A DNA stretch of 64,000 nucleotides from a virus (Duplodnaviria; Heunggongvirae; Uroviricota; Caudoviricetes). The notes under the pieces were generated by a model that saw nothing but the letters and a program-made list of their open reading frames with translations, was not told the DNA's origin and ran no database searches. The translations under genes and the position numbers were made by a program. Where the stretch lies: the IMG/VR virus record IMGVR_UViG_3300006217_000028; one strand, given 5' to 3'. Shown here piece after piece: positions 9,957 through 50,506 of this stretch; positions within the stretch are counted from its first letter, which is position 1, and each line of letters starts with the position of its first letter.

Positions 9957-10346
9957 ATGAAGAGAACTCTTAAAAACTCGGTTATGGTTGACATGCTCAT
10001 GCAGCTGAAACCGCTGCTTTCCCGACGTGACAAGATTGGCTATGCCGCTGCCCGGAATCATCGCAGGCTGGCCGAGTGCTTGACCGAGTATGAACGGTTC
10101 CGCAACAGTCTGATTGAGAAGTACGGTGAGTATGAGAAAGATGAGCACGGGAACGAACTCCCGTCAATCTCCCTGAGCTCTACTTCGCCCAATTTCAAAA
10201 TGTTTCTGAGCGAGCTCGCCCCTTACAATGAAATGGAGCATGAGGTGGAACTTATGGAGCTGCCCTACAGTGAGGTAATCGGCAGTTTGTCAGGAGAAGA
10301 AATCCTCGCGATTGACTGGATGCTGGTAGATGGGGAGGAAGAGTAA
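9957..10346 (+). CDS. Hypothetical phage protein (129 aa)
   Basis: Strong RBS AAGGAGG. Stop overlaps the next start (TAATG). Sits in the tail module. Confidence 0.5.
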   Translation: MKRTLKNSVMVDMLMQLKPLLSRRDKIGYAAARNHRRLAECLTEYERFRNSLIEKYGEYEKDEHGNELPSISLSSTSPNFKMFLSELAPYNEMEHEVELMELPYSEVIGSLSGEEILAIDWMLVDGEEE

Positions 10347-11449
10347 TGGCAGATATTTCTTCACAGCTCCAAAAAATACTGGAAGCCATATATGGCGAAG
10401 AGGTCCGAGGTTCTATCCATGACGCTCTGGCGGCCATGAATGTGGAATCCAACGCCGCCATGGAGTTTGCGGCTACGGCAAAGGATTCCGCTATGAACAG
10501 CGCTGCTGCCGCAAAGGCATCAGAGGAGAAAGCAGCCCTGTCCGAATCAGCAGCCAAAGAATCCGAAACTAACGCCGCTGCATCAGAGCAAGCAGCGTTT
10601 GAAAGCGCGTCAGAATCTATTGACGCGGCAAATGCCGCTAAAAATTCTGAAATAAATTCCGCCGCATCCGAGGCCGCAGCTAAGGCATCCGAAACCAATG
10701 CCGCCAACTCCGAATCAGCAGCAAAAGAATCGGAGACTAACGCTGCCGTATCGGCAGCCACTGCTACAGAGAAAGCGGCGGCATCCTCCGCCTCAGCAGA
10801 GGCCGCAAAAGCGTCCGAGGAAAAAGCCGCCGTATCAGAGAATGCCGCTAAGACTTCGGAGACCAACGCCGCATCCTCTGCCTCCACCGCGTCTGAAAAA
10901 GCGGCCGAGGCGTCTTCTTCCGCGTCTGCCGCAAAGGTTTCCGAAGCGAACGCCTCTGATTCTGAAGTGGCCGCGAAAAAGTCAGAGGTTAACGCGTCCG
11001 CATCCGCCAATGCCGCTGCGGCAAGCGAAACAAACGCAAAGGCCTCTGAAACAAGCGCCGCTCAATCTGCCGCTCACGCCATACAGGAGAGAGAAGACTA
11101 CTCCCAATGGGTGGAACAGCAGGAGGCCGCTTTTACTCAGTGGTTCGATGGTATTAAGGAACAATTTGGCGACGACGTTGCGGGCAATCTTACCAACCAG
11201 ATTAACAAAGAAGAAATCGACAGAATCCTGAGTGCGGGTTTTGCGGACGGCGTCAAGGAGTTCAGTGAGGACGGCACAACTATCACCATGACCGCTCCGG
11301 ATGGCCGGACTCTTACCAAGACCTTCACCAACAGCTTTCAGACCATGACGGCTGTTCTCAGGAAAGCCGATAAGACCGTTGCTGCCACACTGACAAAAGA
11401 GTTTGCGGCAGACGGAAGTACAATCAGCACGACTATAACCTACTCATGA
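10346..11449 (+). CDS. Structural protein with Ala/Ser/Glu-rich low-complexity repeats (putative fibre shaft or stalk)
   Basis: 367 aa. The central 200 aa are 10-11-residue repeats (AAKxSETNAAxSExAAKESETNAA). Globular N- and C-terminal ends. Located between Tal and the DGR-targeted fibre gene. Confidence 0.5.
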   Translation: MADISSQLQKILEAIYGEEVRGSIHDALAAMNVESNAAMEFAATAKDSAMNSAAAAKASEEKAALSESAAKESETNAAASEQAAFESASESIDAANAAKNSEINSAASEAAAKASETNAANSESAAKESETNAAVSAATATEKAAASSASAEAAKASEEKAAVSENAAKTSETNAASSASTASEKAAEASSSASAAKVSEANASDSEVAAKKSEVNASASANAAAASETNAKASETSAAQSAAHAIQEREDYSQWVEQQEAAFTQWFDGIKEQFGDDVAGNLTNQINKEEIDRILSAGFADGVKEFSEDGTTITMTAPDGRTLTKTFTNSFQTMTAVLRKADKTVAATLTKEFAADGSTISTTITYS

Positions 11450-20584: not shown

Positions 20585-20794
20585 GTGGGAAAACAACATT
20601 ACAGCCTAAAGCCCATCCAGGCTCAAGATGCTCTCAACGAGCTCTGCGAATATCTGCTAGGTAAAGATTATTATATAGTCGACCCACTAGGACCTAGCCA
20701 AGCCAACGCCATCATAGTCGATGACATCAAAGAGAAGTATCCTCCTGCTAATGGCGGATTCATTTCGTGGTTTCGCTGGAAGTTTGGGAGGTGA
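20585..20794 (+). CDS. Hypothetical protein (69 aa)
   Basis: GTG start with RBS AAGGAG. Confidence 0.4.
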   Translation: MGKQHYSLKPIQAQDALNELCEYLLGKDYYIVDPLGPSQANAIIVDDIKEKYPPANGGFISWFRWKFGR

Positions 20795-41974: not shown

Positions 41975-44026
41975 ATGAGCATGGAATTTATCAACTTCAG
42001 AACGGCTATTATGGAGCACTTTGCCAAGCTGAGCGAGACTGCTGATCACCTTTACGAGGTAGAAGTAGACAAGGACGAACTGTGGAACCTGTATCTGGAC
42101 AGCTTCCCGGCTGGAACAAATGAAATCTATCGGGAGCGCCGCGAGTACGATTGCAGTTGCTGCCGGCAGTTCATCCGTGCTATCGGCAATGCTGTAGTCA
42201 TTAAAGACGCTATTGTCCATACCATTTGGGAACTTACCGATCTCGGTTCCACATTCCAGCCAGTTGCAGATGCTCTGGACGCTTTTATCAAGACCCACGC
42301 TGTCACGGATGTTTATATTTCCAAGTTTGCTAAGATTGGAACCAATAAGAACCACGAACAGCTTTCAGACGGCACTGTTAAAACATGGAATCATCTCTAT
42401 TTGGAACTCTCCTCCAAATTCGTCGATACGAGCAAACGTTCTGTCGGCGACCTTAAAGGACCGTACCGGGATACTAAAAACGTCTTCAAACGTTCTCTGG
42501 AGGAGATTACAGATGATGCCGTTGACACTGTGTTGGAACTGATTGGCCAGAAGTCCTTATACAAGGGTGAAGAGTGGCAGCACGCTTTGAAGGAGTTTAA
42601 GAAGTACAAGACCCTGTATACTGCCACGCCAGATGATCTCCGTGACAACTTTGCCTGGGAACAGTCTATGAAAGCCGGTATGACAGTGGGGCGAATCCGT
42701 AATCACAGCATGGGCACCCTTCTGACTAACATCAGCGAGGGAATGGCGCTGGATGAAGCTGTCCGTAAATACGAGGCTATCGTGGCCCCAACAAATTACA
42801 AGCGCCCGAAAGCTATTTATACGAAAAGGATGTTGGAGGATGCAAAGAAAACAATCTCTGACTTAGGATATTTGTCGTCCCTCGGAAGGCGGTTTGCCAC
42901 TTTGGATGACATCACGGTAAACAATATCCTGTTTGCCAATAGAAATGCAACGCGGCGTATCAATGCTGCAAATGATATTTTCGGTGAGATGGAGCAGGAA
43001 ATCTCAGTGGATCCGAGAAAGTTCTCTCGGGTACAGGAGATCTCGATTGAGGACTTCATTAAGAATGTCCTGCCGACTGCAACTTCTGTGGAGGCTTTGT
43101 TGGAAAACCGACACGCGTCAAATATGGTCTCGTTGATTGCTCCAGCCGAAAAGCAGAGCCCTTCAATGTTTAAGTGGAACAACGGCTTCAGCTGGGCCTA
43201 CGCTGGTAATATCACCGACAGTAATATCCGGGAAAATGTGAAGATGGCCGGTGGCAAGGTAGATGGTGTCCTTCGTTTCTCTATCCAGTGGAACGATGAA
43301 GATTACTGCCCGAACGACTATGATGCTCACTGCAAACTTCCCACTGGAAATGAAATTTATTATGGTTGTAAGCGAGATGCATATAGTGGTTGCGCACTGG
43401 ATGTCGATATCATCGACCCGAGACGGGGTATACCGGCAGTTGAGAATATCGTATGGCCGTCAAAAGAGCGCATTAGAAAAGGCACATATCTGATGTACGT
43501 TCACTGCTACACCAACAGGCGCGGAACAACTGGTTTTAAGGCGGAGATAGAGTTTGACGGAACAATCCACTCCTTTGAGTACAATAAGGCCCTTCGGCAG
43601 GATGAGATTGTCAAAGTTGCAGAGATTACCTATGATCCTGCAACCGGATTCTCTATCAGGCCACTGATCCCCGACACCGTGTCTGCCAGGGATATTTGGG
43701 GAGTCAAGAGTAACCAGTTTGTACCTGTCTCTGTAATCATGTTCTCCCCGAACTATTGGGATGAGCAGGATGGGATCGGGCACAGGCACTATTTCTTCAT
43801 GCTCAAGGATTGCGTCAACCCGGAAAGGCCAAATGGGTTCTATAACGAATTCCTGAAGCCGGAACTTGAGCAGCATCGTCGAGTCTTTGAAGCTCTCGGA
43901 AGCAAGGCGGCGGTACAGGACGTGGAGAATCAGCTTTCTGGACTGGGCTTCTCTGCTACCAAGCGGAACAGCCTGTTGGTTAAGGTCAAAGGCGCCACCG
44001 AGCGCATTTTGAAAATTATATTTTAA
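41975..44026 (+). CDS. Large hypothetical protein (683 aa)
   Basis: RBS AAAGGAGAAAAAAC. No motifs I can assign with confidence. Confidence 0.55.
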   Translation: MSMEFINFRTAIMEHFAKLSETADHLYEVEVDKDELWNLYLDSFPAGTNEIYRERREYDCSCCRQFIRAIGNAVVIKDAIVHTIWELTDLGSTFQPVADALDAFIKTHAVTDVYISKFAKIGTNKNHEQLSDGTVKTWNHLYLELSSKFVDTSKRSVGDLKGPYRDTKNVFKRSLEEITDDAVDTVLELIGQKSLYKGEEWQHALKEFKKYKTLYTATPDDLRDNFAWEQSMKAGMTVGRIRNHSMGTLLTNISEGMALDEAVRKYEAIVAPTNYKRPKAIYTKRMLEDAKKTISDLGYLSSLGRRFATLDDITVNNILFANRNATRRINAANDIFGEMEQEISVDPRKFSRVQEISIEDFIKNVLPTATSVEALLENRHASNMVSLIAPAEKQSPSMFKWNNGFSWAYAGNITDSNIRENVKMAGGKVDGVLRFSIQWNDEDYCPNDYDAHCKLPTGNEIYYGCKRDAYSGCALDVDIIDPRRGIPAVENIVWPSKERIRKGTYLMYVHCYTNRRGTTGFKAEIEFDGTIHSFEYNKALRQDEIVKVAEITYDPATGFSIRPLIPDTVSARDIWGVKSNQFVPVSVIMFSPNYWDEQDGIGHRHYFFMLKDCVNPERPNGFYNEFLKPELEQHRRVFEALGSKAAVQDVENQLSGLGFSATKRNSLLVKVKGATERILKIIF

Positions 44027-44426: not shown

Positions 44427-44440
44427 GAGAGTACGAATAA

Positions 44441-44480
44441 TGGGGAGGGCCTCAGAATGCTGGGGCTCTCTTTCATTATA
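44441..44480 (+). terminator. Rho-independent terminator
   Basis: GGGGAGGGCCTCAGAATGCTGGGGCTCTC followed by TTTCATTATATTTC. Confidence 0.4.
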
Positions 44481-44665
44481 TTTCAAGGAGAAAATGAGAT
44501 GAACGAGCTCGTAAAAGTATTACTTGTCACCTGTCTGGTTTGTTCTGAATGGCAGATGGCAAAAGGATATCATCGTAAGCAAAGTTTGATAGATATTGTT
44601 TATTGAGGGATTTTAAGACTTATCCTTATTATCTCTCTTAAATGACCAATCGAAAGGAGAAAAAG

Positions 44666-45421
44666 ATGCCTAATTGGGTTAAGAATATCGTTTGCATGAA
44701 GGGAATCGCTCAGGAACCGCTTTTCACGGAGGAGGGTGGCGTTAAGAAATTCGATTTTAATACGTTGATTCGTATGCCGCCATCACTCAATATTGAGAGT
44801 GGTTCCATGACTGATGAAAATATTATCTATTATCTTACCGAGCGGTGCACCATACCATTGGATAAGCTCTCAGAAGATAAAAAGGAACTTTTGAATAAGC
44901 TTGTCAGAAACATACTCGGCGGTGAGAAATGGCATGAGACAGTGTTTCTTAGAGTAATGTCTCATGCGTTCGATGAATCCGAGGAAAAAAAGACAAAACG
45001 ATATACGGATGGCGGAGTATATGTCGCCAACTATCAGCGCTATGGTGCACCAACATGGTATAACTGGTGCTGTGAAAATTGGGGGACAAAATGGAACGCT
45101 TGTAGAACAAACACTGTGGACGATAACACCATCAGCTTCAACACAGCTTGGGGAACTCCCTTACCTGTCATTGCACGATTAGCGGAGACGTATCCAAATC
45201 GAAAGATTGAGCATTGGTGGGCAGATGAAGATGTTGGTCGCAACGATGGATATGCTAAATACATCGGCGGCATTCGGGAAGTTTGTATTCATTATGATGA
45301 ATACTCAAAGGGTGCCTGTGCTACTTATATTCGCTGCTGGGGTGAGAGTAGGTGCTTATATAAAGATGAAGACGGAGAATGGCACAAACACGACTGTGAT
45401 GATTGCCATGGTTGCGACTGA
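44666..45421 (+). CDS. Cys-rich protein, DUF1281-like (251 aa)
   Basis: WCCENWGTKWNAC motif. C-terminal HKHDCDDCHGCD. RBS AAAGGAGAAAAAG. Confidence 0.45.
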   Translation: MPNWVKNIVCMKGIAQEPLFTEEGGVKKFDFNTLIRMPPSLNIESGSMTDENIIYYLTERCTIPLDKLSEDKKELLNKLVRNILGGEKWHETVFLRVMSHAFDESEEKKTKRYTDGGVYVANYQRYGAPTWYNWCCENWGTKWNACRTNTVDDNTISFNTAWGTPLPVIARLAETYPNRKIEHWWADEDVGRNDGYAKYIGGIREVCIHYDEYSKGACATYIRCWGESRCLYKDEDGEWHKHDCDDCHGCD

Positions 45422-45467
45422 TCTACTGTAAGTCCATGTAAAAACAAATTAAAATGAAGGAGGATCT

Positions 45468-46154
45468 ATGGATATTTTAGTTGGAAAACGCAATCAGGGT
45501 AAAACGACGCATTTGATTGAAATGTCAGCGGCTGGGAAAGGAATTATTGTGACACCGAGTGAGCGGAGCGTCAAGTACATTATCAATCGGGCCAAGGAAA
45601 TGAAGCTAGATATTCCCGAACCAATTAGTTGGGGTCGGTTAGTTTTGCCCGGTTATCATCGTGGTTACAGAGGCCCCTTCCTTCTCGATGAACTTGGCGG
45701 AATCCTAAGGGGGCTTGAAATCGAAACCGCAATTCTCGATGATGAATGTAATGTCGAGAATCTGTCTGGTGAACCGTTGCACTACGGTGATAGGCTGACT
45801 GAAAAGATCCGGGAGAGTGCAAAGGATTTCAACAAGCTTTCGGACTTTGACAAGTTTGTCCTAAATAACGGGTATCGGTATGAAACTCGGGAGGCGTTGC
45901 AAGCTGGATATGACCGTCACTGGAAAGCAACCCATGATATTTTGGTGACAATTGAGGAGTTTCTCGCAGAAGCTGAAAAGAAACCGAGTGATCCGGCCAC
46001 TGGTGTATATGAAGTCCTTGTCAGCCTTGTTGAGGATAAGAAACTCCGTCCCAGAGAAGTTCTCAGTTATGCGCACTTCCGTTGGTGTCTCGACGCTCCG
46101 GAGGCGATTGTCGCTTGGCAAACGTTTTCAGATTATGTTCATGAGCATGGGTGA
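45468..46154 (+). CDS. P-loop NTPase-like hypothetical protein (228 aa)
   Basis: GKRNQGKTT Walker-A-like motif. RBS GAAGGAGG. Confidence 0.5.
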   Translation: MDILVGKRNQGKTTHLIEMSAAGKGIIVTPSERSVKYIINRAKEMKLDIPEPISWGRLVLPGYHRGYRGPFLLDELGGILRGLEIETAILDDECNVENLSGEPLHYGDRLTEKIRESAKDFNKLSDFDKFVLNNGYRYETREALQAGYDRHWKATHDILVTIEEFLAEAEKKPSDPATGVYEVLVSLVEDKKLRPREVLSYAHFRWCLDAPEAIVAWQTFSDYVHEHG

Positions 46155-46734
46155 GCCGCTCCTCAACTGGAATGAGGTTGAACTGGCTATCAGAAAACTC
46201 CACGAAAATTTTCCAACTGCCGAATTGCTGCTTTCCACGATTGCTCCGTCCGGTCGAGAAGTTTGGGATAGTGTGATACAGCTCTCTACGGACATCAATA
46301 AGGTCGGCCTGCAATTCTCTATTCATAAGTCAACCGACCAGGATCGCAATCTACTTATCCCCTACGAAAATAAGCTGACATTGCGAGAAATCCGAGACAT
46401 TGGGATTGTTTGGTGGCGGGAAACTGGTCGGCATCCTTATCTCAACTATTGCATCGATGGATCCAACAATATGTACGCCGACGTAGAACGGCTTACTACA
46501 TTATTCTCACCAATTATATTTAACTTTACATTCAGCGTGGTCTGCTCCGCGAATGAAAGTATGAAGGAGGCTGGCTTCCGAGAGTTAGATACTGTGAGGG
46601 CTTTTGAAAGTAAGTTTGCAGAAAAAGGCTACAATACACGGGTGTTCAATCCAGATGGTCAGGACGACATTGGTGGCGGCTGCGGCCAGCTCTGGTATGT
46701 TCAGAAATGGATGAGGGAGAACGGACGAAAATGA
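46135..46734 (+). CDS. RlmN/Cfr-family C-terminal domain protein lacking the radical-SAM CxxxCxxC motif (199 aa)
   Basis: MFMSMGEPLLNWNEV matches RlmN MMGMGEPLLNLNNV. LQFSIHKSTDQDRNLLIP matches LAISLHAPNDEIRDEIVP. C-terminal VFNPDGQDDIGGGCGQL matches RKTRGDDIDAACGQL (the methyl-carrying Cys region). No Cys cluster in any upstream frame. First ATG codons overlap the stop of 45468-46154. Confidence 0.5.
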   Translation: MFMSMGEPLLNWNEVELAIRKLHENFPTAELLLSTIAPSGREVWDSVIQLSTDINKVGLQFSIHKSTDQDRNLLIPYENKLTLREIRDIGIVWWRETGRHPYLNYCIDGSNNMYADVERLTTLFSPIIFNFTFSVVCSANESMKEAGFRELDTVRAFESKFAEKGYNTRVFNPDGQDDIGGGCGQLWYVQKWMRENGRK

Positions 46735-46994
46735 CTGATGAACAACTCCTGAATTTTTGCCAAGATCATAATGTAGAAATTAGTTTTAGCTTCGAGTCCA
46801 CATCAAATAGTTATTTATTAAGAATGTGTAGATGGGGTAAAGATAACAAATCTGTAATTCAAAGCAACCATACTATTCATTATGAAGAATGTTCACGCTC
46901 AACATTTTGGCCGTTTATCATCAGAATGACTTTAACTGATATGCTCCATGAAATTGAGCACCAAGAGAGGAGAATAAGTAATGATCAAAATTGA
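46731..46994 (+). CDS. Hypothetical protein (87 aa)
   Basis: Overlaps the upstream stop. Cys/His-containing. Confidence 0.4.
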   Translation: MTDEQLLNFCQDHNVEISFSFESTSNSYLLRMCRWGKDNKSVIQSNHTIHYEECSRSTFWPFIIRMTLTDMLHEIEHQERRISNDQN

Positions 46995-47694
46995 AAACAC
47001 TCAGGTCGTTGGCCTGGAAGCGGCAATCCGTGGGATGCGGAATCCGATGAACAGTTGGGAGAAGTCGGATAGCATATTTGCTAATTCTGGAGATGACGAC
47101 GTACATTATTTGAATGGCGAACCCTGCATTTGCCATCCCAGTAACGAATACAGAGCATATATTGGCCCCAACGACCACGATCTCATGATGCGTTTGGCCA
47201 AGCAAGGGCCTGTTCACGGCAAGTTCCGCCGGATGATTGTGGTGTATGTTGACATCACCGCCCCGCTCTACTGGTGGAAACAGTTCGATACCTATCAGGT
47301 TGGTACTGTAAAAAACTCCTGCTCTACCATGCACAAGATTCACGCTAAGGAGTTTACATTGGAGGATTTTTCCAGCGAGTATCTAATTTGTTGGGGGGAC
47401 GTTGAGAAGGAAGTTCTTGTTGCTATGAAAGGCGTCCTTGACGCTTTGAACTTCGCCCGCAATAAGTATCTTGAAACGAAGGACGAAAGATACTGGTACC
47501 AGATGATCCAACTCCTACCTAACAGCTACAACCAAAAACGGACGGTCATGCTGAACTACGAGGTCCTGGCTAATATCTATCAGTATCGCTGGAATCACAA
47601 GCTGGACGAATGGCGAGAGTTCTGCGTGTGGATAGACTCCCTACCCTACAGCGATATTATCGCTTGCAGTTCATATGGTGAAGACCGTGAATAA
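46981..47694 (+). CDS. ThyX-like (flavin-dependent thymidylate synthase fold) protein with substituted RHR motif
   Basis: 237 aa. HGKFRRMIVVYVDITAPLYWWKQF matches ThyX [25 protein letters not shown]. At the ThyX RHRxxSxxxxSxRY position the sequence reads DTYQVGTVKNSCSTMH. N-terminal MIKIENTQVVGLEAAIRGMRN and C-terminal RTVMLNYEVLANIYQYR also align to ThyX. Confidence 0.5.
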   Translation: MIKIENTQVVGLEAAIRGMRNPMNSWEKSDSIFANSGDDDVHYLNGEPCICHPSNEYRAYIGPNDHDLMMRLAKQGPVHGKFRRMIVVYVDITAPLYWWKQFDTYQVGTVKNSCSTMHKIHAKEFTLEDFSSEYLICWGDVEKEVLVAMKGVLDALNFARNKYLETKDERYWYQMIQLLPNSYNQKRTVMLNYEVLANIYQYRWNHKLDEWREFCVWIDSLPYSDIIACSSYGEDRE

Positions 47695-47896
47695 GCAGCT
47701 GAGAAAGCGGTATAACCTCTGGCTATTCAAGAAGTATGGTTTTAACCGGGGACCATTCTTCGAGCGAATTCCTACGATTTACAAGTTGATTCCGCTGTGG
47801 TCGCCATCTTTGTATCATCACTGCGAAGGAACACAAATTTGTGAGCGGGTTATTCAAGGTCTTGAAGAAGGAATTAAAAAATATGAGCGAGGTTAA
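47675..47896 (+). CDS. Hypothetical protein (73 aa)
   Basis: Overlaps the 3-prime end of the previous gene. Weak signals. Confidence 0.3.
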   Translation: MVKTVNKQLRKRYNLWLFKKYGFNRGPFFERIPTIYKLIPLWSPSLYHHCEGTQICERVIQGLEEGIKKYERG

Positions 47897-48068
47897 CTAT
47901 CCGACTGATATTTTGGTAGTTGATGGTATGGGAGTATCAGTTGAAGAGACTATGGAAATTATTAAGGCACATAAGGAGGGTTATGGGCCTAATTCTTTCC
48001 ATGACGTCCCTTTTGACATATACATCATTAAAAAATTGGAGGTACCTATCTATGAAATTCTTTGTTGA
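47883..48068 (+). CDS. Hypothetical protein (61 aa)
   Basis: Internal ATG of track ORF 47841-48068. Confidence 0.3.
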   Translation: MSEVNYPTDILVVDGMGVSVEETMEIIKAHKEGYGPNSFHDVPFDIYIIKKLEVPIYEILC

Positions 48069-48984
48069 GAAAATTGAAAAGACCTACACTCGCTACGGCG
48101 CGGAATACACAGAAGTTGAACGCCGCCTCCGGCTTGATCGAATCATCATCTGCGGTGTAGCAGCCATCGTTGCTCTCGGACTGATATTTACCAGCTTCAC
48201 TGTTGTTGGGGCGGGCCATACTGGCGTGGTGTCCACGTTTGGTCAGGTAAGCGAGGACGTTTTGCAAGAGGGGTTCCACTTCAAGGCGCCCTGGCAGAAA
48301 GTCACCAAGATGGACAACCGGATCGTCAAGCTGGAGGTATCCACTGAGGCTTTCAGCTCAGACCTGCAAACGGTCAACGTGAACTTGGCCGTCAACTATC
48401 GCGTTGACACGGCGAAGTCTTTTTCCATTGTCAAGAACGTGGGCACCAACTATGAGGATGTACTTATTACGCCAGCAGTCAACGAGGTTATGAAGTCGAT
48501 TATGGCCAGCTATACTGCTGAGCAGAGCATTACCAACCGAAACATCATTTCTACAGCCTTGCTCGATGAATTGAACGATAAACTTTCAGACAGCGGAATT
48601 TATGTTTCAGATATTAACATCATTGACTTCGACTTTAGCGACGTATATGTGGCAGCTATCGAATCCAAGCAGGTTGCAGAACAAGAGAAACTTCGGGCAA
48701 AAATCGAACAGGAGCAGCTTACTATGGAAAAAGAGTCGGAGTCTGCCCGTCGGATAATCGACGCCGAAGCCGCTGCGGAGGTTGCCAAAATTGAGGCGGA
48801 AGCGGCGGCGTATGCTGGTGAGAAAGAGGCTGCCGCAAATGAAAAGATTGCGGAATCTCTGACACGGCCGCTCATCGAGTATTACAAAATCCAGCAGTGG
48901 GATGGTAAGCTCCCTTCGGTTACAGGAGCGGATACCATTATAACGATGGGTAACGAGAAATCGGACGAGAGCAAGGAGGAGTAA
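48052..48984 (+). CDS. SPFH / band-7 (prohibitin-like) domain membrane protein
   Basis: 310 aa. N-terminal transmembrane helix. GHTGVVSTFGQV...GFHFKAPWQKV...VNYRVD are SPFH core motifs. C-terminal Ala/Glu coiled coil. RBS GGAGGT. Confidence 0.7.
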   Translation: MKFFVEKIEKTYTRYGAEYTEVERRLRLDRIIICGVAAIVALGLIFTSFTVVGAGHTGVVSTFGQVSEDVLQEGFHFKAPWQKVTKMDNRIVKLEVSTEAFSSDLQTVNVNLAVNYRVDTAKSFSIVKNVGTNYEDVLITPAVNEVMKSIMASYTAEQSITNRNIISTALLDELNDKLSDSGIYVSDINIIDFDFSDVYVAAIESKQVAEQEKLRAKIEQEQLTMEKESESARRIIDAEAAAEVAKIEAEAAAYAGEKEAAANEKIAESLTRPLIEYYKIQQWDGKLPSVTGADTIITMGNEKSDESKEE

Positions 48985-49302: not shown

Positions 49303-49551
49303 ATGAACGAAACTGGCAAAGAAATCTTGTGTACCGGGTGCGCCCACAGAGAAGTATGCGAGCGAAAAAACGAATACCAGCACGCCGCGGTACTTGCAAA
49401 CGACATCATCGAAGAATTGATGGATAGAGTACGTTTACAGTTGCGCACTATTCCTTGGGTTCATGTACGGTCACCTGAAGTAAATTGCGATTATTTCATG
49501 AGGCGGCGCAAAATGGCGACGGTATGGGACAACGGAGGTACCAATGAGTAA
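49303..49551 (+). CDS. Hypothetical protein (82 aa)
   Basis: RBS AGGAAGGGG. Confidence 0.45.
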   Translation: MNETGKEILCTGCAHREVCERKNEYQHAAVLANDIIEELMDRVRLQLRTIPWVHVRSPEVNCDYFMRRRKMATVWDNGGTNE

Positions 49552-50506
49552 AGAATACGATGAATACCTACAAGAGCATCGATCAAACCTCTGCTTTGGT
49601 CTGGAATGGCTTAAGCAGAATCTTCCTGAGGTGCTTGAAGGAGCGTACAATATTGACTGGCTCGTTCAGAACGCCCATGACCATTCTAAGTACGGGTCGG
49701 AAGAATACAACGCCTACGATACATATTTCTACACAAACATCAAATCGTATCGCGTCCAGCAGGATTTTCAGCTAGCCTGGCTCCATCACATCCATCATAA
49801 CCCTCACCATTGGCAGCACTGGGTGCTTATCAACGACGATCCAGCAGAAGGAACTGTCTGCCTTGAGATGCCGCGATGCTATATCATTGAAATGATTTGC
49901 GACTGGTGGTCTTTCAGTTGGGCTAAGAATGATTTGACGGAGATATTTCGTTGGTATGACGAGCATCGGGAACACATACTGCTGCATAAGAACACTCGAG
50001 AGATGGTCGAGGATATTCTTGGCAAAATGGCGGAAAAACTTGACTATACGGGCGAGTTGTGTCATCATGGTGTAAAAGGGCAGAAGTGGGGTGTACGCAA
50101 TGGGCCGCCGTATCCTTTAGGCGAAGGTGATAAGTCGGCGGAGGAGAGAAAAGCTGATGGTAATAGAACTAACATCGTCAAACAGGCGATTCAGTCGGGA
50201 AAAGTTTCGACTAAAATTAACCGTGAAAAGCAAAAAAGACATACACAAGATGACCACACGCCAGGAAAAAGCTATATTCATGGAGATTTAATAGAGGCGC
50301 AACACCTTGTGGATACACTCAGTGGTACAGGGAAAGCACTTGAAGGGCGAGACGGAGCTTGGAACCATCGCGAAAGAGTTTCACATAGCGACATAATCGG
50401 TACGCATGTAGACGAAAAGGGTGTCGAAACTCCATCTAAAAATGCGATAATCGTTTATTCCAAGACTGGAAGTCACATTTATCCAGCAAAGAAGAAAGGA
50501 GACTAA
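49544..50506 (+). CDS. Hypothetical protein (320 aa) with His-rich segment HHIHHNPHHWQHW
   Basis: RBS GGAGGT. The C-terminal 20 aa recur in degenerate form at 50841-50900. Confidence 0.5.
   Translation: MSKEYDEYLQEHRSNLCFGLEWLKQNLPEVLEGAYNIDWLVQNAHDHSKYGSEEYNAYDTYFYTNIKSYRVQQDFQLAWLHHIHHNPHHWQHWVLINDDPAEGTVCLEMPRCYIIEMICDWWSFSWAKNDLTEIFRWYDEHREHILLHKNTREMVEDILGKMAEKLDYTGELCHHGVKGQKWGVRNGPPYPLGEGDKSAEERKADGNRTNIVKQAIQSGKVSTKINREKQKRHTQDDHTPGKSYIHGDLIEAQHLVDTLSGTGKALEGRDGAWNHRERVSHSDIIGTHVDEKGVETPSKNAIIVYSKTGSHIYPAKKKGD

Follow-up and report, generated by a model that had tools for sequence, protein, structure and literature searches.

A probable microhomology-mediated deletion scar joins a truncated Walker-A gene to an RlmN/Cfr-like remnant in a phage accessory island

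The segment at 45468–46734 of the window, by which we mean the whole 64-kb stretch of phage DNA analysed here, is very probably a scar left by microhomology-mediated deletion, or by illegitimate recombination, in a variable accessory island of a gut phage. At an 11-nt sequence, GCTTGGCAAAC, an intact Walker-A gene of 290 aa was joined to an RlmN/Cfr-like radical-SAM gene of 288 aa, at a cost to the first of its last 71 codons and to the second of its ribosome-binding site, its start codon and 82 codons that include the [4Fe-4S] loop and the equivalent of Cys118. The join is out of frame, so that the P-loop ORF runs nine codons into DNA derived from the radical-SAM gene and stops at 46154. Read from its sequence, the locus is an ordinary deletion scar and not a new architecture, and what is left of the RlmN/Cfr-like gene is most likely a dead remnant. 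The features of the region are as follows.

44666–45421, + strand: upstream Api92-like gene with a DUF1281_C domain (Pfam PF18406, E = 9.7e-14)
45468–46154, + strand: 3′-truncated Walker-A ('P-loop'-like) accessory gene; 228 aa, of which 219 are native codons and nine an out-of-frame tail
46113–46123, no strand: recombination or deletion junction, the 11-nt microhomology common to both parental genes
46114–46734, + strand: 5′-truncated RlmN/Cfr-like radical-SAM remnant, the C-terminal 206 residues and stop
46125–46154, + strand: foreign tail of the P-loop ORF, wrong-frame DNA of radical-SAM origin with the TGA stop
46135–46734, + strand: longest ATG-initiated ORF in the remnant, 199 aa
46731–46994, + strand: downstream 87-aa gene (SD −8.9 kcal/mol), also called as 87 aa in L017

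The Api92-like gene, called as 251 aa in contigs L017–L021, belongs to the left-hand parental segment. At the other end, the ATG of the 87-aa gene overlaps the TGA of the remnant as ATGA, and a Pfam search with this gene returned no match. The 228-aa ORF starts with MDILVGKRNQGKTT, and the radical-SAM frame extends open from 45952 to 46734, where three ATGs in this frame (46135, 46141 and 46147) lie 7–19 nt before the stop of the P-loop ORF; this overlap of the two frames is as the first-pass annotation had described it. The remnant ORF has been given other starts as well, namely ATG 46147 in the Logan call (195 aa), TTG 46108 in the JGI call (208 aa), and ATG 46141.

The two halves of the locus match two different parents. 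Positions 45033–46123 of the window are 100% identical to L011, the contig of the intact 290-aa P-loop gene (P0121), and from 46113 on the window is 100% identical to L009, L010 and L008, and 99.7% identical to L007. The contigs that carry the 288-aa protein P0001 (L006–L010) share 95–100% identity with the window over 46113 to past 50,000; the homology ends abruptly at 46113, and the identity to L009 is 100% over 1,165 shared nt. P0001 is the best database match of the remnant, to which it is 100% identical, and has in addition a normal radical-SAM N-terminus upstream. The parents overlap in GCTTGGCAAAC (46113–46123), and on either side of it each parent diverges from the window. This sequence is the only 11-mer common to both parental genes and their longest shared k-mer, with about 0.18 shared 11-mers expected by chance across all position pairs. 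The remnant at 46114–46734 corresponds to codons 83–288 of the P0001 allele, or residues 90–295 of the intact homologue P0002, plus the stop; the SD, the start codon and codons 1–82, with the cluster and the Cys118 equivalent, are gone. Truncation relative to homologues, a breakpoint that is traced to its parents, and the loss of start signals and catalytic residues together mark it as a gene remnant, and the decayed gene listed as one possibility in the first-pass annotation is thus what the locus turned out to contain.

The exact 228-aa protein that spans the junction occurs on nine contigs, of which the eight listed stem from eight different samples or runs: one JGI metagenome (3300006204), six Logan runs (ERR10017631, ERR10017632, SRR23619914, SRR22050024, SRR22049968 and SRR24860713) and one ENA assembly (ERZ28572109). 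Seven of these eight loci match the window at 100% identity, and L017 matches it at 99.98% (2 of 9667 bases differ). As the junction is base-identical in different samples, it is real and exists in nature, and its uniformity identifies the junction variant as one recent clone, as judged from these contigs. The arrangement sought in related phages was found, base-identical in nine contigs, as a single clone, and in the relative L027 the two genes are intact and separate. Since the alleles differ by 0–1 nucleotides, dN/dS is impossible on the remnant or on the allele with a seven-residue deletion described below. No copy of the exact junction 41-mer exists in viral_contigs, and a megablast of 44600–47700 against the phage collection gave no match. 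No direct undeleted parent uniting P0121 and P0001 in a single genome turned up, and an intragenomic deletion is for that reason indistinguishable from recombination between co-infecting phages; the sole P0121 contig is 1.4 kb long, and a 36-mer of P0121 from just past the junction is absent from metagenome_contigs.

The P-loop gene opens with a strong SD (AAGGAGG, −12.1 kcal/mol) and carries a Walker A motif of the form GxxxxGK[ST] (GKRNQGKT, residues 6–13 of the 228-aa ORF) that is conserved in homologues. These number 83, and the full-length ones are 288–292 aa; P0121 (290 aa) is 99% identical to the P-loop ORF over residues 1–222. Past the junction P0121 goes on ...AWQTGRDKW (...GCAAACCGGACGGG), whereas the window reads ...AWQTFSDYVHEHG followed by the stop. 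The gene has thereby lost its last 71 residues (GRDKWTVNNC...QVYC), a segment that is highly conserved in the family, and gained the nine residues FSDYVHEHG from radical-SAM DNA read out of frame. The N-terminal 59 aa match phrog_1828; searches of the ORF against Pfam, NCBIfam, PADLOC and PDB profiles and by tblastn against the phage collection gave no match, and the close relatives were obtained through protein searches of metagenomes. Its AlphaFold2 model is too poor for a fold search, with a mean pLDDT of 61.8 and of 38–68 in the N-terminal module. The truncated P-loop protein is probably impaired too. The suggestion that a P-loop domain and an RNA-binding module had been newly combined does not hold, as the parts are out of frame, both are truncated with respect to all homologues, and the join is a microhomology scar.

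On the other side of the junction, the product of 46135–46734 matches NCBIfam TIGR00048 (RlmN) with E = 2.9e-11 over profile positions 161–343 of 355, Cfr models with E of about 1e-8 to 1e-9, and in the PDB the RlmN-type methyltransferase 6fz6 (E = 3.7e-8) and the Cfr structure 9p0p (E = 8e-6). Its segments MSMGEPLL, SIHKSTDQDR and DDIGGGCGQL align to RlmN motifs. By these profile scores the similarity to RlmN/Cfr is far above chance, which bears out the first-pass assignment; of the 'C-terminal two-thirds of RlmN' proposed there, the C-terminal position stands, and the extent is about 52% of cellular RlmN, or 70% of the shorter 295-aa phage family. The scores of 42.9–45.5 bits are below the curated cutoffs (290 for TIGR00048, 468–550 for the Cfr models), and the phrog_24834 match is not full-length, covering profile positions 186–313 of 336 only. 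Pfam Radical_SAM gives no more than a marginal match (E = 0.09), since the remnant has lost the N-terminal half of that domain. BLASTP alignments that extend over 86–95% of a 260-aa query were rejected as extension artefacts, the DNA upstream of 46113 being 100% P-loop-gene sequence.

The C-terminal CGQL cysteine, which we take to be the methyl-carrying Cys355 of E. coli RlmN, is kept, and DDIGGGCGQLW aligns to DI(S/D)AACGQL of 6fz6, 9p0p and 4pl1. The CxxxCxxC motif is absent from the remnant ORF. The earlier observation that none lies upstream is confirmed by a six-frame scan of the 64 kb, where five such strings occur, none of them in frame in any gene checked; the closest, at 43066, falls in another frame of a 683-aa gene, six codons past a stop. 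A tblastn search of the window for the radical-SAM N-terminal half, queried with residues 1–100 from three intact homologues of phages, gave a best E of 0.16. The relatives' segment ICCSTMSGC falls in the 82 deleted codons and so is absent from the remnant; its conserved cysteine, seven residues before the cluster, corresponds to E. coli Cys118, which resolves the covalent intermediate. Cleavage of SAM by radical-SAM enzymes needs the cluster, and with the cluster site lost the fragment cannot bind a cluster or cleave SAM. Mapped on the model of P0002, the remnant starts at the QIMFMS strand and is without helix 1, the cluster loop and the four N-terminal strands, of which the fourth runs into that loop; it keeps MSMGEP, five of the six core strands (all after the first) and the C-terminal GGGCGQL cysteine. 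Stable folding of a fragment that starts mid-barrel, without the first core strand and helix 1, is doubtful on this model.

The family to which the remnant belonged is intact elsewhere. A large protein search returned 4,794 homologues, with alignment confined to the C-terminal 206 residues; 111 of the 120 top homologue clusters are about 285–310 aa long and have CxxxCxxC, MSMGEP and CGQL. The region is accordingly not unconserved junk among relatives, which conserve the full-length gene. Among annotated phages, tblastn gave 21 records, including Vibrio, Aeromonas, Stenotrophomonas and Xanthomonas phages, Salmonella phage Arash and the 462-kb uncultured phage LR756500. The best matches begin about 96 codons inside a 295–320-aa gene, and the annotated intact genes of this size have an N-terminal CxxGCxFCGTG. 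P0002, an intact homologue with 93% identity to the remnant over the remnant's whole length, scores 99.5 bits against TIGR00048 (cutoff 290) over profile positions 73–343 of 355, and the N-terminal accessory (RNA-binding) domain of RlmN is thus missing even in the intact phage relatives. Its AlphaFold2 model (pLDDT 81, pTM 0.83) has RlmN/Cfr structures as all five of its best PDB matches (TM 0.62–0.73, E 1e-12 to 1e-14), the next radical-SAM enzyme following at 1e-4. From profile and model comparisons, the intact family is a compact RlmN/Cfr-like radical-SAM enzyme of ~295 aa; with the N-terminal domain missing and a score of 99.5 bits against a cutoff of 290, it is an equivalog neither of RlmN nor of Cfr. 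Searches of the literature for RlmN or Cfr-like enzymes encoded by phages yielded nothing specific. The intact genes are seen among Tad3 and Tad8, beside DUF488-N3a or NAD-salvage-type genes, and inside phage tRNA clusters.

The parental radical-SAM allele was already damaged before the join. Where relatives read GCPVGCKFCGTGNKFIRNL (CPVGCKFCGTGNKFIRNL from CPVGCKF onward), P0001 reads GCPVGCKF directly followed by IRNL, the result of an in-frame deletion of 21 nt that is flanked by CAAGTT repeats and takes away the third cluster cysteine. Two further alleles show independent inactivations: in P0018 the first cluster cysteine is replaced by Arg, and in P0079 the N-terminus is swapped for a fragment of a YrrC/RecD2 helicase OB domain. 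The gene is missing from the relatives L012, L025, L026 and L029, and its absence from the first three indicates that it is dispensable. We infer from these alleles that the gene is dispensable in some hosts and was non-functional as a radical-SAM enzyme before its truncation.

An undeleted layout is kept in the 86-kb IMG/VR contig L027, where both genes are intact and the order is a DUF8224 gene, a 128-aa gene, the P-loop gene (290 aa), Tad8, WDGH/Tad3, a 117-aa gene, DUF488-N3a, the intact radical-SAM gene and a phrog_6721 gene, with ~3.1 kb between the two points equivalent to the junction. Other relatives have different cargo between the same conserved flanks. By the gene content of these contigs the interval is a hypervariable accessory island in which known anti-Thoeris genes occur, and the phage is probably an Oscillospiraceae-associated gut phage. 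Homologues of Tad3 and DUF488 were not detectable in the window. The event would have removed the intervening DNA as well, which in L027 comprises Tad8, WDGH/Tad3, the 117-aa gene and DUF488-N3a, and the truncation would have been tolerated in a lineage that no longer needed the radical-SAM gene. The 206 codons that remain would then be a young pseudogene fragment that is not yet degraded.

Translation of such a fragment would be weak at most, starting through termination-reinitiation at the ATGs that precede the P-loop stop. The SD duplex energies of the ATGs at 46135, 46141 and 46147 are −1.5, +0.4 and −1.9 kcal/mol, as against −9 to −12 kcal/mol at 5–10 nt spacing for the neighbouring genes and −8.9 kcal/mol for the intact radical-SAM gene in relatives. 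The TTG at 46108 has a fortuitous GGAGG, 2–3 nt upstream only, and a scan for promoters and terminators did not outperform shuffled sequence. It is conceivable that weak termination-reinitiation follows the P-loop stop and gives a 195–199-aa product.

The main point against a dead remnant is that the ORF is fully open and all of its remaining motifs are intact, as they would be in a functional fragment; an open ORF is, however, equally expected for a very recent event, given that there are no substitutions relative to the parents. It is improbable that the cluster-less fragment is made by reinitiation and acts, with no radical chemistry, as an RNA-binding decoy or as a dominant-negative partner of host RlmN. 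The kept CGQL cysteine loop and five of six core strands in an intact ORF, the position of the three ATGs 7–19 nt before the upstream stop, the circulation of the cluster-defective alleles P0001 and P0018 in several samples, and the recovery of the junction variant from at least eight samples would all agree with such a role. Nevertheless, no remnant ATG has an SD, the start is mid-barrel with the first core strand and helix 1 missing, a single clonal lineage with zero divergence gives no selection signal, and a junction at the only shared 11-mer fits accident and not design; moreover, 111 of 120 relatives keep the cluster. That a reinitiated fragment of 195–208 aa has been retained for non-catalytic binding of tRNA, rRNA or host RlmN is likewise highly improbable; if true, the phage would have a non-enzymatic means of disturbing host translation or of protecting RNA against a defence nuclease. 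The 'inactive mimic' interfering with translation that had been envisaged therefore finds no support, the SD and start being lost, the lineage being single and free of substitutions, and the parent being already cluster-defective.

An assembly or sequencing artefact is very unlikely, whether through a chimeric join or through an indel masking a full-length gene. The join does coincide exactly with the border between two sequences that other samples carry separately, but the junction is identical in nine contigs, with the eight listed drawn from eight samples and three sources (JGI, ENA and Logan). De Bruijn assemblers work with k-mer sizes that exceed 11 nt, and an 11-nt repeat is too short for a chimera in such a graph. 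No frame upstream of 46113 encodes a radical-SAM N-terminal sequence, and no indel can restore a full-length protein.

There is hardly any likelihood of a programmed +1 (or −2) ribosomal frameshift within 46113–46154 that would fuse the P-loop protein (219 aa) to the C-terminal 206 aa of the radical-SAM protein. The frames overlap by 42 nt (46113–46154) and the radical-SAM frame is open across the junction; however, the overlap shows no slippery motif on inspection (P-loop frame GTC GCT TGG CAA ACG TTT TCA GAT TAT GTT CAT GAG CAT GGG TGA) and arose from a chance microhomology join, and both partners are fragments of proteins that are separately encoded, ~3 kb apart in L027. The frameshift fusion raised at first reading fails for the further reason that the DNA upstream of 46113 is the P-loop gene of L011 at 100% identity, and not a radical-SAM N-terminus in another frame. 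A split enzyme, in which a cluster-bearing N-terminal piece encoded outside the window complements the fragment in trans, has next to no chance of being correct: the window is only part of a genome whose related contigs reach 84–97 kb, but the 64 kb contain no N-terminal homologue, the parental allele already lacked a cluster cysteine, and the origin of the fragment by deletion is traced base by base. Positive evidence for any of these alternatives goes no further than the open ORF, a feature that a remnant with zero divergence would show in any case.

As a deletion scar the locus matters little in itself, and offers a clean, base-resolved example of accessory-gene loss by microhomology-mediated deletion in a variable island of a phage. 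It also carries a warning for annotation, as the 195–208-aa ORF will be called radical SAM or RlmN though it cannot be one. The more useful by-product is the intact compact RlmN/Cfr-like family, which is widespread in phages and has been repeatedly inactivated.

Compared with RlmN (23S rRNA m2A2503 and tRNA m2A37) and Cfr (m8A2503), the remnant aligns with each over its C-terminal half and shares the MGEP motif and the CGQL cysteine, whereas CxxxCxxC, the Cys118 equivalent, the first core strand, helix 1 and a start codon of its own are lacking. Its closest counterparts are the phage proteins of the PHROG 24834 family, which include Vibrio phage 496E54-1 CAH9014187.1, Salmonella phage Arash gp133c, Stenotrophomonas phage ANB28 XMQ95057.1, a protein of LR756500, and the gut-metagenome proteins P0002–P0120. 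The remnant is 44–54% identical to isolate and uncultured phage proteins of this family and sits upstream of a phrog_6721 237-aa gene, the same position as in close relatives; the family's genes are 295–320 aa with CxxGCxFCGTG and their own SD, whereas the window keeps residues 90–295 only. Illegitimate or microhomology-mediated recombination that leaves gene remnants is the classical model of phage mosaicism (discussed, for example, in PMC2327257). The window resembles the remnants at such mosaic junctions in that homology to two parents breaks abruptly inside coding sequence, at a short microhomology, with both flanking genes truncated and within a hypervariable accessory region. There is no essential difference between them, and since both parents are sampled here at 100% identity, the event is unusually recent and easily traced.

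The RlmN/Cfr-like radical-SAM gene, of which a 5′-truncated remnant persists at 46114-46734, belongs to a compact family in which the N-terminal domain of RlmN is missing. The family occurs widely among phages and has intact members of ∼295–320 aa, for example:

L027 13476-14366, intact gene in a relative with the undeleted layout
L030 909-1796, intact gene
L001 4713-5639, intact gene
L002 4713-5642, intact gene
L003 4707-5666, intact gene
L004 3713-4600, intact gene

Beyond the truncation in the window, the gene is inactivated in at least three further independent instances among its homologues. In the P0001 allele (seven contigs) a 21-nt deletion removes the third cluster Cys, in P0018 (40 member sequences) the first Cys is replaced by Arg, and in P0079 a YrrC/RecD2 OB-fold fragment stands in place of the radical-SAM N-terminus.

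Comparison of the window with its relatives reveals a hypervariable accessory island between the conserved DUF8224 and 128-aa genes on one side and the 237-aa phrog_6721 gene on the other:

Window 44427-46980, accessory island
L027 10864-13476, accessory island
L029 8892-12006, accessory island
L012 6867-8872, accessory island
L006 4263-5987, accessory island

In relatives the island carries Tad8 and WDGH/Tad3, which inhibit type II and type I Thoeris respectively, together with DUF488-N3a, adenylosuccinate synthase and a gene with weak similarity to DnaJ, whereas the cargo of the window itself is an Api92-like gene and the two truncated genes (P-loop and radical-SAM). No Tad3 or DUF488 homologue was found in the window, and its only Tad8-like match, at 20642-20728, is weak and partial.

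The 'P-loop' family, comprising the truncated gene at 45468-46154 and its homologues P0121-P0203, is modular, with a Walker-A module of ∼100 aa and a C-terminal module of ∼190 aa, each of which also occurs with other partners. Examples are P0177-P0199, whose N-terminus is a different one, and P0197, which joins a Tad3-like C-terminus to the P-loop N-terminus. We could place the window gene and these homologues neither in a known family nor, with confidence, in a fold.

Two other genes lie 3′ of the remnant, and both are kept in L006, L008 and L017:

Window 49544-50506, ORF whose product unites DUF5662 with Ntox50 (bacterial toxin 50) at the C-terminus
Window 47920-48984, SPFH/Band_7 protein gene

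L028 (CAJTFK010000001.1), a contig of 301 kb from an Oscillospiraceae MAG of mouse gut, harbours a relative of this phage region, which suggests a prophage or host association. Its radical-SAM gene (10001-10876) is 76% identical to P0005 and 79% to P0002, and the region also holds w237 and w521 homologues.

Public annotations of intact radical-SAM homologues (cited loci L005 3707-4666 and L001 4713-5639) are inconsistent or wrong. The L005 gene of Stenotrophomonas phage BUCTxx99 (OR529408.1) is labelled 'prohibitin family protein', as in JGB6, full-length Vibrio phage genes are labelled 'putative radical SAM protein, partial', and others 'hypothetical protein'.

The genomic contexts of the intact family are suggestive. 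In L030, L032 and L033 the radical-SAM gene is directly preceded by a DUF488-N3a gene, and in L027 a gap of 15 nt separates the end of the DUF488-N3a gene from the radical-SAM gene; Tad3 and Tad8 genes also adjoin intact members. In Vibrio phages the neighbours are NAMPT/NAPRTase-family and phosphoribosyltransferase-type genes, and in Stenotrophomonas phages the gene is located within tRNA gene clusters. We found no literature on the function of the compact phage family, for which a putative role in counter-defence or tRNA modification is a testable idea.
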